From IMG/VR virus record IMGVR_UViG_2778261572_000007: a stretch of DNA of 5,214 bases, one strand, 5' to 3'. A program made the position numbers and the translations under genes. Positions within the stretch are counted from its first letter, which is position 1. Every line of letters starts with the position of its first letter. Below the pieces are notes generated by a model. That model searched no databases and had not been told where the DNA came from. It worked only from the letters and a program-made list of their open reading frames with translations. Shown one piece after another: positions 1,357-5,214 of this stretch. The stretch comes from a virus. Its lineage: Duplodnaviria > Heunggongvirae > Uroviricota > Caudoviricetes.

Positions 1357-1650
1357 ATGCGCCAGCAGAGAAAACAGATGGCGCACAAGACCAAATTACA
1401 CAATTCTGATACCGTTCGTGCCAGCAGGCGCGGGCGGCGTTCTCACGCATTCAAATCTGACTGGTTCCAGCATGATTCATGCACTGAAGAACAGGCCGAA
1501 TGGCTGATTCAGAACTACCGCAGACGTGGTTACGAGTTTCAGAAAGACCTCAGCCTCGACTTCCGACACTGGATAATCTCCGTCAGGCTTCCTTACTCTG
1601 AACGCCCACCGCGTCCGTCTCGCACATTCCAGCAACGCATCTGGAGGTAA
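1357..1650 (+). CDS. Hypothetical basic protein (97 aa), translationally coupled to the downstream gene
   Basis: Arg/Lys-rich N-terminus (MRQQRKQMAHKTKL...RRGRRSH). Its TAA (1648-1650) sits 1 nt before the GTG start of the next ORF and immediately follows that gene's GGAGG. The start is uncertain: ATG 1357 has no clear SD, and ATG 1378 is an alternative. Confidence 0.5.
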   Translation: MRQQRKQMAHKTKLHNSDTVRASRRGRRSHAFKSDWFQHDSCTEEQAEWLIQNYRRRGYEFQKDLSLDFRHWIISVRLPYSERPPRPSRTFQQRIWR

Positions 1651-1651
1651 C

Positions 1652-2701
1652 GTGCGGGTATTACTTCGACCTGTTCCGGTACCGGAACTCGGGCTGGTGG
1701 TCCTTAAGCCTGGTCGTGAATCCATGCAGGTATTTCATAACCCTCGAGTGCTGGTGGAGCCGGAACCGAAAAGCATGCGCGGTCTGCCGTCCGGAGTCGT
1801 TCCTGCCATTCGCCAGCCGCTGGCGGAAGACAAAACATTGCTGCCGTTTTTCAGTAACGAACGGGTGATTCGTGCTGCTGGCGGCGCTGGTGCACTTTCT
1901 GACTGGCTGTTGCGTCATGTCAAATCCTGCCAGTGGCCTCATGGCGACTATCACCACAGCGAAACCGTCATACATCGTTACGGTACCGTCGCGATGGTGT
2001 TGTGCTGGCACTGCGACAACCAGCTGCGCGACCAGACCTCCGAGTCACTCGGGCAACTTGCTCATCAAAACCTGTCTGCATGGATGATTGACGTCATTCG
2101 TCACGCAATGAATGGCACACAGGAGCGGGAATTATCTCTGGCTGAATTATCCTGGTGGGCGGTCCGCAATCAGGTGGCGGACGCGCTACCGGAAGCGGTA
2201 TTACGTCGTTCGCTGGGGGTGCGTGCGGAAAAAATCCGCTCAATGTACCGTGAAAGCGACATCGTACCGGGAGAGCAGACCGCCACCAGCATACTGAAAC
2301 AGCGCACAAAAAATCTTGCGCCGCTGCCTCACGCCCACCAGCAACAGAACCCACCACAGGAAAAGACGGTGGTCAGCATTGCCGTTGATCCTGAGTCTCC
2401 GGAATCTTTCATGAAACGACCTAAACGTCGCCGCTGGGTTAACGAGAAATACACACGCTGGGTTAAGACACAGCCGTGTGCGTGTTGTGGTAAGCCAGCC
2501 GACGATCCCCATCACCTGATTGGTCATGGTCAGGGCGGAATGGGGACAAAATCTCACGATATTTTCACGCTACCGCTGTGTCGGGAGCATCACAACGAGC
2601 TTCATGCGGATCCTCTGGCGTTCGAAGAAAAGCATGGTTCTCAGGTTGATTTAATTTTTCGTTTTCTTGATCACGCCTTTGCAACTGGCGTGCTTGGGTA
2701 A
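1652..2701 (+). CDS. Prophage protein of unknown function with a C-terminal Cys/His (HNH-like, probable zinc-binding) cluster; recalled as resembling DUF968 / YdfU-like prophage proteins (349 aa)
   Basis: 1050-nt ORF starting at GTG 1652 with GGAGG at 1643-1647. The C-terminus carries CACCGKPADDPHHLIGHG...LPLCREHHNELH. It sits directly upstream of rusA and Q, a position where lambdoid prophages carry nin-type accessory genes. The family name is from memory and is not verified. Confidence 0.75.
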   Translation: MRVLLRPVPVPELGLVVLKPGRESMQVFHNPRVLVEPEPKSMRGLPSGVVPAIRQPLAEDKTLLPFFSNERVIRAAGGAGALSDWLLRHVKSCQWPHGDYHHSETVIHRYGTVAMVLCWHCDNQLRDQTSESLGQLAHQNLSAWMIDVIRHAMNGTQERELSLAELSWWAVRNQVADALPEAVLRRSLGVRAEKIRSMYRESDIVPGEQTATSILKQRTKNLAPLPHAHQQQNPPQEKTVVSIAVDPESPESFMKRPKRRRWVNEKYTRWVKTQPCACCGKPADDPHHLIGHGQGGMGTKSHDIFTLPLCREHHNELHADPLAFEEKHGSQVDLIFRFLDHAFATGVLG

Positions 2702-2713
2702 AAGAGGTGACTG

Positions 2714-3070
2714 ATGCTCATAGATTTGGTTTTACCTTACCCGCCGACGGTGAACACTTACTGGCGACGCCGTGGCAGCACATATTTTATCTCGGATGAG
2801 GGAAAGCGTTATCGCCGGGCTGTGGCGCTTATTGTTCGCCAGCAGCGGCTGAAATTAAGCCTGTCCGGAAGGCTGGCGATAAAGGTGATTGCAGAGCCAC
2901 CGGATAAGCGTCGTCGCGACCTGGACAATATCCTGAAAGCACCGCTGGATGCGCTGACGCATGCGGGAGTGTTAATGGACGATGAGCAGTTTGATGAAAT
3001 CAATATCGTTCGTGGTCAGCCAGTATCTGGTGGACGTCTGGGGGTGAAGATTTACCCCATAATGCATTAA
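2714..3070 (+). CDS. rusA: Crossover junction endodeoxyribonuclease RusA (Holliday-junction resolvase), 118 aa
   Basis: Size and motifs match RusA: N-terminal LPYPPTVNTYWRRRG and the acidic catalytic region RRRDLDNILKAPLDALTHAGVLMDDEQ. SD AGAGGTG lies upstream of ATG 2714. The position immediately upstream of Q is typical of lambdoid phages that carry rusA instead of ninG/rap. Confidence 0.9.
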   Translation: MLIDLVLPYPPTVNTYWRRRGSTYFISDEGKRYRRAVALIVRQQRLKLSLSGRLAIKVIAEPPDKRRRDLDNILKAPLDALTHAGVLMDDEQFDEINIVRGQPVSGGRLGVKIYPIMH

Positions 3071-3084
3071 GAGCAGGTCAAAAA

Positions 3085-3906
3085 ATGAAACTGGAAGATT
3101 TACCGAAATACTACTCCCCAAAATCACCTTGCCTGACCGATGCATCGGCCTCAACGTCAAAAGATGCGCTGAGTATCACTGATGTGATGGCCGCGCAGGG
3201 CATGACACAGAATCGGGCTGAGATGGGGTTTTCTGCGTTCCTGGGGAAAATGGGCATCAGTATGAATGACAGGGCGCGGGCAACAGAATTACTGGCAGAT
3301 TATGCACTCAGTCGGTGCGATCGTGTGGCGGCGTTGAGAAAACTTCCGGCAGAAATAAAACCGTTAGTGATGCGCATTATGGCTTCGTACGCTTTTGAGG
3401 ATTATGCCCGCAGCGCAGCGAGTAAAAAGCAGTGCCCTTGTTGCTATGGGGAAAAATTTATTGAAAGCGTAGTTTTTACAAACAAGGTCCAGTATCCGGA
3501 TGGTAAGCCGCCGGTATGGGCAAAGTGTACGAAAGGTGTGTATCCGTCTTACTGGGAAGAATGGAAAAAAGTCAGGGAGGTGGTAAAAGTTGCCTGTCCG
3601 GAGTGTGGCGGAAAGGGTGAGGTTTCCACCGCCTGTAAGGATTGCCGTGGGCGTGGTGTCGCCATTCATCGTGAAGAGTCGGTAAAACGTGGTATGCCTG
3701 TTATCAGAGACTGCCGGCGTTGTGGCGGTCGTGGCTATGAAAGACTGCCATCAACGGAGGCATTTAATGCCATATGCAAAGTGACGAGCGCTATCACGCT
3801 TGATACATGGAAAAAATCAGTGAAACGCTTTTACGATACGTTGGTGGTTCGGTTTGACATTGAAGAGGCATGGGCGGAGCGGCAGTTAAAGAGAGTAACG
3901 CGATAG
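3085..3906 (+). CDS. Q: Late-gene antitermination protein Q-like (273 aa) with four CxxCxGxG zinc-finger-type repeats
   Basis: Called mainly on position: directly after rusA and directly before a P_R'-like promoter and tR'-like terminator. Contains CPCCYGEK, CPECGGKG, CKDCRGRG and CRRCGGRG repeats. Assignment to a specific Q family is not verified. Confidence 0.75.
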   Translation: MKLEDLPKYYSPKSPCLTDASASTSKDALSITDVMAAQGMTQNRAEMGFSAFLGKMGISMNDRARATELLADYALSRCDRVAALRKLPAEIKPLVMRIMASYAFEDYARSAASKKQCPCCYGEKFIESVVFTNKVQYPDGKPPVWAKCTKGVYPSYWEEWKKVREVVKVACPECGGKGEVSTACKDCRGRGVAIHREESVKRGMPVIRDCRRCGGRGYERLPSTEAFNAICKVTSAITLDTWKKSVKRFYDTLVVRFDIEEAWAERQLKRVTR

Positions 3907-3911
3907 TGTTG

Positions 3912-3939
3912 TTGATTTTTCCCGAATCTGTGGTAAATT
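3912..3939 (+). promoter_or_regulatory. P_R'-like late promoter (-35 TTGATT, 16-nt spacer, -10 TAAATT with upstream TGg extended -10-like context); a qut-like site is expected to overlap
   Basis: TTGATT at 3912-3917 and TAAATT at 3934-3939, 6-8 nt after the Q stop (3904-3906). Lambda P_R' also uses a TAAATT -10. A small hairpin CGCCC(3941-3945)/GGGCG(3952-3956) plus T-run sits in the predicted initial transcribed region. The predicted start is near 3946. Confidence 0.5.
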
Positions 3940-4115
3940 CGCCCTAACGATGGGCGTTTTATGCCTGACGTTAGAAGAATTTTTACAACTCGCCCTGATG
4001 GGACTTGTGAGACTTCCGGGCAGGAAGCCAGGAGTAGCGATAAGGCGATGGCAAGCCTGCTGCCCCTGTGTAAAAGGCACCTTAATGGTGCCTTTGTCGT
4101 TTTTATCAAAAGATC

Positions 4116-4137
4116 CCCGCCACTGGCGGGTTTTTTT
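4116..4137 (+). terminator. Rho-independent terminator, tR'-like
   Basis: GC stem CCCGCC (4116-4121) / GGCGGG (4125-4130) with a 3-nt loop, followed by seven T (4131-4137). It lies about 190 nt downstream of the predicted P_R' start, matching the lambda P_R'-6S RNA-tR' architecture. Confidence 0.65.
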
Positions 4138-4265: not shown

Positions 4266-4342
4266 CCGTCGCTAGCTCATCCGGATAGAGCATCAGCCTT
4301 CGAAGTTGATGGCGCGGGGTTCGAGTCCCCGGTGACGGTCCA
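4266..4342 (+). tRNA. tRNA-Arg, anticodon TCG (UCG), 77 nt with encoded CCA
   Basis: Manual cloverleaf: acceptor CCGTCGC / GTGACGG (7 bp, one G-U); D-arm GCTC-ATCCGGATA-GAGC; anticodon arm TCAGC-CTTCGAA-GTTGA (anticodon positions 34-36 = TCG); variable loop TGGCG; T-arm CGGGG-TTCGAGT-CCCCG; discriminator T then CCA. Confidence 0.75.
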
Positions 4343-4344
4343 TT

Positions 4345-4856
<512 letters not shown>

Positions 4857-4874
4857 ATTTTATAACCCAGAACG

Positions 4875-4898
4875 GGCGTCAGAAATGACGCCTTTTTT
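4875..4898 (+). terminator. Rho-independent terminator (GAAA tetraloop hairpin plus T6)
   Basis: GGCGTCA (4875-4881) - GAAA - TGACGCC (4886-4892), then TTTTTT (4893-4898). It lies 19 nt after the stop of the 4548..4856 ORF and upstream of the Lom-like gene. Confidence 0.7.
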
Positions 4899-4922
4899 AT
4901 TGCAGAAAAGCGAGAGGTAATT

Positions 4923-5214
4923 ATGCGTAAACTTTATGCCGCCATTTTGTCCGCAGCCATTTGTCTGGCCGTATCCGGTGCGCCTGCATGGGCGTCTGAA
5001 CATCAGTCTACGCTGAGCGCGGGGTATCTTCATGCCCGGACGAACGTTCCCGGCAGTGATGATCTGAACGGGATTAACGTGAAATACCGTTATGAGTTTA
5101 CGGACACACTGGGGATGGTGACGTCGTTCAGCTATGCAGGAGACAAGAATCGCCAGATTACCCGTTACAGCGATACCCGCTGGCATGAAGATTCCGTGCG
5201 TAACCGCTGGTTCA
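4923..5214 (+). CDS. Lom/Ail/PagC/OmpX-family outer-membrane protein, 5' part only (continues beyond the window end)
   Basis: ATG 4923 with GAGAGG SD (4912-4917, 5-nt spacer). N-terminal signal peptide [24 protein letters not shown] with an AWA|S cleavage site. The mature N-terminus [10 protein letters not shown]...[28 protein letters not shown] matches the first beta-strands of the Ail/Lom family (the G-x-N-V-K-Y-R-Y-E signature). No stop codon before 5214. It is absent from the ORF track only because it is unterminated. Confidence 0.85.

Follow-up and report, generated by a model that had tools for sequence, protein, structure and literature searches.

A YdfU-family protein with an HNH-type domain and its small upstream neighbour in the early operon of a lambdoid prophage

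What do two tightly joined genes, placed just before a Holliday junction resolvase gene, contribute to a lambdoid prophage? The question is raised by a 5,214-nucleotide stretch of viral DNA (IMG/VR record IMGVR_UViG_2778261572_000007; hereafter the window, meaning the whole stretch), a 5.2-kb piece of a defective lambdoid prophage from an Escherichia-like host whose best DNA matches are to Escherichia coli chromosomes (92-95%). The two genes belong to the distal part of a delayed-early (“nin-like”) operon, which encodes in order a 90-amino-acid (90-aa) protein, a YdfU-like protein of the DUF968 family, RusA and the antiterminator Q. The YdfU-like protein has two folded domains, the second of which is an HNH module, and its gene is found with rusA across many prophages. 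On balance, the reading given a slight edge is that YdfU is a zinc-containing HNH DNA endonuclease acting in the RusA pathway on recombination or replication intermediates, with the small gene as an optional accessory. The pair itself is already known, as an ordinary and very widespread pair of lambdoid prophages.

The YdfU-like protein and its two domains

The ydfU-like gene (positions 1652..2701, + strand) begins with a GTG codon and encodes 349 aa. Its match to Pfam DUF968 (PF06147) scores 258 bits where the gathering threshold is 27.8 (E 5.8e-77), with profile positions 1-171 falling on residues 160-346, and PHROG 96, named “HNH endonuclease,” covers residues 1-348 (E 5e-175); neither NCBIfam nor PADLOC gave a match. 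The protein is 86% identical to YdfU of E. coli K-12 (b1560) over residues 1-349, the N-terminal domain included, and 95% identical to a homologue from E. albertii, and the nearest cluster, at about 96% identity, holds 4842 E. coli sequences. An exhaustive search returned 3074 cluster representatives at E values up to 1e-3, many of them full-length and reaching down to 28% identity. The region is matched in 4570 of 5426 complete E. coli genomes (84%), with up to 9 copies per genome, and ydfU ranks among the commonest prophage genes of this species.

Both the conservation counts given below and the AlphaFold2 (AF2) structure model draw on 35 diverse homologues, aligned to the YdfU-like protein at 25-85% identity. 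The model (mean predicted local distance difference test score, pLDDT, 87.7; predicted template modelling score 0.57) shows two domains separated by a disordered linker (residues 229-240, 2336..2371) with pLDDT below 50, which is rich in insertions and deletions in the alignment. The C-terminal domain (residues 241-349, 2372..2698) contains the Cys/His string QPCACCGKPADDPHHLIGHGQGGMGTKSHDIFTLPLCREHHNELH (residues 274-318, nt 2471-2605), in which the HNH core spans 2477..2605. C276 (35/35), C279 (26/35) and C310 (28/35), together with position 313 (Cys in 15 homologues, His in 11), form the proposed zinc knuckle, C276/C279 being paired with C310 and H313. The proposed active-site positions are likewise conserved: H287 in 31, H288 in 32, D303 in all 35, and H314 and H318 in 31 each. 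H288 ends the strand formed by residues 285-288, where it aligns with the HH of phage P1 Ref and the AH of YbcO, and would act as the general base; D303 lies in a loop, and H314 and H318 sit on a helix.

The domain thus has the makings of a His-Me finger, namely a beta-beta-alpha-metal fold, a catalytic His, and a helix bearing a metal-ligand His together with a zinc knuckle, the ligands being assigned at the level of sequence. In a fold search the best structural match was P1 Ref, followed at lower scores by McrA and other HNH enzymes, and the HNH domain of Cap5 was also among the matches. Profile comparison of the core points the same way, with YbcO at 82% (E 1e-5) and Ref at 79% (E 1.6e-5, 36% identity over 55 columns); comparison with lambda NinG gave 7% (hhalign, 18 columns). 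Searches of PDB sequences, with single sequences and with profiles, returned no match for either the YdfU-like or the small protein, so the link to solved structures holds only at the fold and profile-profile levels. The C-terminal domain is an HNH module of the Ref/YbcO type with its active-site residues intact, probably stabilised by zinc.

An earlier note on this DNA had pointed to an HNH-like zinc-binding module in this C-terminus and had described the family as widespread in prophages. The DUF968 score and the motif conserved across the 35 homologues, both well outside what chance would give, together with the fold match bear out the former, and the genome counts the latter. The structural guess was right but already in print, because DUF968/YdfU had been classified as HNH within group 7 of the His-Me fingers, with RusA and Q noted as its neighbours and a role in recombination proposed (Jablonska et al., 2017, PMC5714182). 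A nuclease function has also been predicted for YbcO (Kaur and Subramanian, 2016, PMC4999995).

The N-terminal domain (residues 1-228, 1652..2335) is a separate folded unit, with pLDDT values of 82-96 over residues 1-190. Its first ~160 residues lie outside every Pfam model, and the domain has no counterpart among solved folds; an Orf/NinB-like domain, in particular, found no support in the fold, domain and locus searches. It carries a second Cys/His cluster, absent from the earlier note, of the form C93 ... H101 ... C118-W-H-C121-D-N (1928..2020), laid out as helix, loop, beta-hairpin and helix. C93 and C118 are invariant (35/35 each), W119 is kept in 34 and D122 in 32, and position 101 is Cys in 21 homologues and His in 13, as position 121 is His in 27 and Cys in 8. 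Such interchange of Cys and His at two positions flanked by invariant Cys suggests that the cluster is probably a structural zinc site. Its elements (helix, Cys loop, beta-hairpin, helix) come in the same order as in the C-terminal HNH module. In the best hhalign alignment of the two domains the Cys/His motifs and secondary structure line up, but the match is not significant (E 0.08, probability <1%), which leaves an internal duplication of that module as no more than a suggestion. Since residue 102, the equivalent of the catalytic His, is not conserved, and since the match between the two halves is insignificant, the second cluster is read as a structural or recognition module and not as a second active site.

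The small upstream gene and its junction with ydfU

The small gene lies immediately upstream on the + strand. Its maximal open reading frame (ORF) runs from 1357 to 1650 and would give 97 aa from the ATG at 1357, the length stated in the earlier note. Two of three aligned Escherichia-type homologues have CTG in place of that codon, which coincides with a mosaic breakpoint. The ATG at 1378 is kept in 12 of 12 Escherichia/Shigella sequences and corresponds to the start chosen by the Prokaryotic Genome Annotation Pipeline, whose calls for homologues are 90-92 aa long. The product is therefore most likely a 90-aa protein encoded at 1378..1650, and PHROG 1212 matches it over its 66-aa core.

This core (1450..1647) is the conserved part of the protein. 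AlphaFold models it as a beta-alpha-beta-beta unit with pLDDT of about 90 and, after it, a Pro/Arg-rich tail of lower order that ends in W-R. In the 12 Escherichia/Shigella sequences the ratio of nonsynonymous to synonymous substitution rates (dN/dS) is 0.13 over the core, which identifies a real gene under purifying selection, against 0.73 over the N-terminal extension (residues 1-24, 1378..1449). The extension is basic, with 7 Lys/Arg and 1 Asp/Glu and an isoelectric point (pI) of 12; it is predicted to be disordered, with pLDDT below 50 over residues 1-21. It occurs in Escherichia/Shigella homologues only. Those of other Enterobacteriaceae (Klebsiella, Citrobacter, Kluyvera) are 66-67 aa long and start with MKKxWFQH at the position of residue 25 of the window protein. 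The whole protein has a pI of 10.8 and the core a pI of 9.5.

A profile search with the small protein found 310 clusters, in which every match with a named organism belongs to the Enterobacteriaceae and none bears a Pfam domain or a name. The protein itself has no Pfam or NCBIfam family and no PADLOC match, and its core matched no known fold or family. Two candidate identities were rejected. Some phage records carry the label “toxin to Rem” (locus L003, 3021-3299), and K-12 Rem, an 83-aa protein encoded one gene further 5' of the small ORF, proved unrelated. PdcA of phage P1 shares the 66-aa length and the position, and hhalign gave it a probability of 0.1%.

In K-12 the gene is present as well. 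The Qin prophage contains an intact 92-aa homologue, 73% identical to the window protein by tblastn, at about 1644306-1644584 on the minus strand of NC_000913.3 (locus L004, 4307-4585). The 346-bp “gap” that separates rem (b1561) from ydfU (b1560) is taken up by this homologue, which ends in the same CTGGAGGTAAcGTG junction and is unannotated in the RefSeq record.

How are the two genes joined? In the window the sequence at 1641-1657 reads ctGGAGGTAAcGTGcgg, so that the GGAGG-TAA-c-GTG junction (1643..1654, + strand) is made of GGAGG at 1643-1647, the TAA stop at 1648-1650 and the GTG start of ydfU at 1652-1654. Ahead of its stop the small ORF closes with the codons TGG AGG, which double as the Shine-Dalgarno sequence of the next cistron. 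The junction is the same in 11 further Escherichia/Shigella loci, the sole change being c to t at the spacer base in two of them. Among 23 loci with the small gene, its end is G-rich and Shine-Dalgarno-like in all 23 (mostly TGG followed by AGG, GGG or GAG), and in nearly all of them the gap between its stop and the following start is 0-3 nt, for ydfU (next in 12 loci) as for rusA (next in 11). The role of these codons as a ribosome-binding site probably contributes to the invariance of W89. Stop and start lie a few nucleotides apart, the Shine-Dalgarno sequence falls within the upstream ORF, and this arrangement is conserved; the layout is that of a coupled pair, and the small gene is probably translated together with ydfU, or with rusA in other phages.

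Such coupling extends well beyond this pair. In most ydfU loci the gene directly 5' ends in an ATGA or GTGA overlap with the start of ydfU, and these genes vary widely, encoding RusA (of two divergent types), Rha/ANT, KilA-N, ORF6N, a DNA methyltransferase, a replication-associated protein or a protein with a LexA DNA-binding domain. Because ydfU homologues abut or overlap such varied genes, tight coupling is a property of the operon rather than of the pair. Both ORFs, the junction and the C-terminal string described in the earlier note were thus recovered as it had them, and the 97-aa length gave way to 90 aa. Its suggestion that the two proteins are made together holds for the junction and goes too far as evidence of partnership, given the varied neighbours and the many loci without the small gene counted below. 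The basic N-terminus is real in this copy and is no conserved feature. Nucleic-acid binding, which had been drawn from that disordered and lineage-specific segment, loses support.

Genomic setting and possible roles

Across genomes the association of ydfU is with rusA first and the small gene second. The loci compared number 83, for the most part a single one per species, and were collected around ydfU homologues at 44-95% identity. In 64 of them rusA is encoded on the same strand no more than about 2 kb away, and the small gene is found in 23 and absent from 60. Where present, it stands directly 5' of ydfU in 12 loci (Escherichia, Shigella, Klebsiella) or directly 5' of rusA-ydfU in 11. Viewed from the small gene, four further homologues place it directly before rusA-DUF968 or DUF968 in 17 of 17 cases, so that it is directly 5' of ydfU or rusA-ydfU in 40 of 40 loci. 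The relation is asymmetric: the small gene seems to need the RusA/YdfU module and the module does not need the small gene, a pattern that favours an optional accessory over an obligate toxin-immunity pair. The ydfU gene is placed directly before Q or rusA-Q, and no homologue of NinG, NinH, NinB or NinE was found within 3 kb of it in the 83 loci. Prophages of Citrobacter, Kluyvera, Raoultella and related hosts repeatedly carry DinI and a 353-361-aa RecA homologue 5' of the small-gene/rusA/DUF968 module; they also encode proteins with LexA DNA-binding domains, the theta subunit of DNA polymerase III and a DNA methyltransferase upstream. These RecA- and SOS-related neighbours parallel the order hot-humD-phd-doc-pdcA-pdcB-lpa of the P1-type phages (P1-like phage RCS47).

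A few gene fusions were also seen. The small protein is joined in frame to YdfU in one sequence (P0038, 438 aa) and YdfU to RusA in another (P0056, 447 aa). Three 607-aa proteins (P0039-P0041) have both Pfam DUF968 and the Q antiterminator, and are taken as fusions from their length and domain list. None goes beyond a singleton or a very small cluster, and they may reflect gene decay or faulty assembly.

In the reading given a slight edge, YdfU would nick or cut DNA at the D-loops, forks and junctions that form during phage growth. It would work in the pathway of RusA, filling the genomic slot that Rap/NinG occupies in lambda, and it might depend on a partner, for instance a RecA filament, by analogy with P1 Ref. 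The N-terminal domain would most likely provide substrate recognition, and the small gene would be an optional accessory of the RusA/YdfU module. The earlier note had also guessed at a role in recombination beside rusA; the context agrees with it, and the guess repeats a hypothesis already published.

Several points weigh against this reading. A PdcB-type branch (3 of the 35 aligned homologues and PdcB of phage RCS47) lacks the HH pair, and some conserved function of the family must therefore need no catalysis. By sequence YdfU is no member of the Ref or NinG Pfam families. Given this and its folded N-terminal domain, RecA dependence is no more than an analogy with Ref. The nin region collects unrelated accessory genes, so evidence from neighbourhood is weak, and 60 of the 83 ydfU loci are without the small gene. 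Both zinc sites are assigned from conserved residues. The literature searched holds no experimental report on YdfU, PdcB or YbcO, which fits the earlier description of the family as functionally uncharacterised, and PdcB of P1 is listed as non-essential and of unknown function.

A more specific form of the same idea is doubtful. It holds that the whole YdfU family is a Ref-like class of HNH enzymes, present in most E. coli genomes and requiring a RecA filament or branched DNA, that the zinc-bearing N-terminal domain reads DNA structure, and that the 66-aa core protein is a dedicated third component of the RusA module which tunes or targets it.

Could the HNH fold serve instead as a zinc-finger module in a protein that mainly binds DNA or regulates, for example in late-gene activation? 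The PdcB-type branch, which keeps the architecture and has lost the HH pair, is consistent with this, as is the position of the gene directly 5' of a late activator in lambdoid (Q) and P1-like (Lpa) phages alike, and one family member has been annotated as a phage transcriptional regulator (PMC5714182). However, H287/H288, D303, H314 and H318 are each kept in at least 31 of the 35 homologues, which is unexpected for a purely structural finger, and a place beside Q is common to many unrelated nin genes. A non-catalytic role for YdfU in general is accordingly held to be rather unlikely.

Somewhat less likely again is a toxin/immunity or toxin-antitoxin (TA) pair, in which the small protein would be the co-translated inhibitor of a toxic HNH nuclease. 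A small upstream gene coupled stop to start does resemble the layouts of type II TA and colicin-immunity modules; the toxicity inherent in HNH domains often has to be kept in check (PMC5714182), and fusion P0038 joins the two proteins in frame. Such a pair should nevertheless occur together and side by side, and most ydfU loci lack the small gene, which is adjacent in only 12; in 11 of the 23 loci that have it, rusA stands between the two. Neither protein matches a TA or defence family in PADLOC, Pfam or NCBIfam. The small protein is basic, whereas DNase immunity proteins are as a rule acidic and mimic DNA.

A nuclease for defence or counter-defence, turned on superinfecting phage or host DNA and unrelated to recombination, has little probability. 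HNH effectors are common in defence systems, and the Cap5 HNH domain was among the fold matches; TA modules lie nearby (RelE/HTH in the window, relBE and hokD in Qin, phd-doc in the P1-like phage), and ydfU is very common among the prophages of E. coli. Against these stand the empty PADLOC search, the tight association with rusA, and the location of the gene inside the early operon and on its strand, where a scan of 1357-2714 found no strong promoter or terminator on the + strand. A packaging role, in which YdfU would assist terminase as an HNH nuclease, is very improbable: pdcB does lie two genes 5' of pacA/pacB in P1-like phages, but the lambdoid gene belongs to the early operon and is separated by Q from the late genes, the window prophage keeps ydfU despite the deletion of lysis, head and most tail genes, and a two-domain protein of 349 aa fits poorly in size and architecture, terminase-associated HNH proteins being small.

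Downstream of ydfU, after a gap of 12 nt that contains aAGAGGt, comes rusA (2714..3070, + strand; Holliday junction resolvase family, Pfam RusA E 3.4e-17), and then a Q-type antiterminator gene (3085..3906, + strand; Pfam Antiterm E 2.4e-52), which marks the 3' end of the operon. Terminator-like hairpins with T tracts follow on the + strand at 3940-3956, 4073-4095 and 4116-4130, and the region 3906-4135 is the expected site of the late promoter and the Q-controlled terminator region. Two adjoining tRNA genes lie beyond them on the + strand (4266-4342 and 4345-4417); ARAGORN calls only the first (tRNA-Arg, anticodon TCG), and Rfam scores the second as well (48 bits). The stretch directly after the tRNAs (~4418-5214, + strand) holds the final ~100 codons of the gene for tail-tip protein J (Ig_GpJ_C, E 4e-25) and then an Ail/Lom gene (E 3.5e-54). 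Since the end of J and lom directly follow the tRNAs, the lysis, head and most tail genes have been deleted; the prophage is defective and its ydfU intact.

Upstream, the minus strand carries genes for a RelE-family toxin and a helix-turn-helix (HTH) antitoxin (157-982). The toxin (Pfam PF06296, E 1e-46) probably starts at an internal codon near 838, and its gene precedes that of the antitoxin with an 8-nt overlap. TA modules also lie just 5' of ydfU homologues elsewhere, as relBE and hokD in K-12 Qin and as phd-doc in P1-like phages. The antitoxin gene is followed closely on its 3' side by what, read from the sequence alone, looks like a bidirectional terminator, a G+C-rich hairpin with a run of T after it (aaaaaccccggattgatggtccggggttttgtt, 107-135). 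A 70-aa ORF on the + strand (1080-1292, PHROG 1813) occupies the position of Rem and matches it marginally (E 0.02). The mosaic breakpoint falls at ~1346-1358: most E. coli and phage relatives align only rightwards of it, and to its left they have hokD where the window has the RelE/HTH module. Antisense ORFs within the gene pair (for example 1477-1725 and 1661-2011, minus strand) have no homology support, and the + frame of the pair is strongly conserved at the protein level across genera.

Why does such an ordinary pair matter? Its importance is low to moderate and comes mainly from the abundance of the family and the little study it has received. If YdfU does act like Ref or Rap, most E. coli strains would have at least one additional structure-specific nuclease besides RusA, which could affect recombination between prophages, recovery from DNA damage and the mosaic evolution of phages; a Ref-like module in particular could bear on prophage mosaicism, on SOS outcomes or on the lethality of antibiotics, as reported for Ref. 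Modest additions made here are a corrected start and a defined core for the small gene, the strictness with which it accompanies the RusA/YdfU module, the annotation gap in K-12, and a putative second zinc site, which defines an N-terminal domain lacking a family assignment.

Relation to known systems

Ref of phage P1 (PDB 3PLW) shares the HNH spacing of YdfU (PCIAC...LHHIAG...LPLCRWHH in Ref) and is an HNH endonuclease that depends on RecA and cuts only within D-loops made by RecA (PMC4330346). The two differ at the N-terminus: Ref has a disordered basic segment of 76 residues and a long helical finger, and YdfU has a folded domain of 228 residues in place of any such segment. The YdfU-like protein gave no match to Pfam RecA_dep_nuc (PF16786, the Ref family) at E values up to 0.1. 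YbcO (DLP12 and phage 82; DUF1364, PDB 3G27) is a single domain of 96 aa, has no counterpart of the YdfU N-terminal domain, and shows AH where YdfU has HH at the catalytic position. Its gene overlaps rusA in DLP12. The YdfU-like protein has no match to Pfam DUF1364 (PF07102), and the relation is seen at the profile and fold levels; DUF1364/YbcO is a sister family to YdfU and not the same family.

Rap/NinG of lambda, a branch-specific endonuclease, occupies the equivalent slot late in the nin region, just before Q. NinG, too, has been placed among the His-Me fingers, with D-loops and junctions as its substrates (PMC5714182). The YdfU-like protein gave no match to Pfam NinG (PF05766) and shows no detectable sequence relation to it beyond the zinc knuckle, so Rap/NinG is a positional analogue from a different family. 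Orf-HNH fusions of Gram-positive phages, also termed “DUF968,” have in common with YdfU the C-terminal zinc-finger HNH motif and the context of phage recombination (Curtis et al., 2014). The Orf-like N-terminal domain of that Orf/NinB-HNH architecture was not found in the YdfU-like protein. DUF968 HNH modules have been reported fused to ERF, Rad52 and RusA (Curtis et al., 2014; PMC5714182).

PdcB of phages P1 and P7 is a full-length homologue of YdfU (hhalign 100%, E 2e-67, 27% identity) in which the N-terminal Cys/His cluster is included. Like ydfU, pdcB has a TA module before it and a late activator after it. PdcB of RCS47 (locus L086, 3905-4948), which matches P7 Upf95.7, lacks the DPHH catalytic pair and keeps the rest of the HNH scaffold, and the 66-aa PdcA encoded upstream is not homologous to the small protein of the window. 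YdfU of the K-12 Qin prophage has the same family and architecture and, as in the window, a small ORF upstream and Q downstream. Qin is without rusA, which in the window stands between ydfU and Q, and the upstream insert is relBE-hokD-rem in Qin and the RelE/HTH module in the window.

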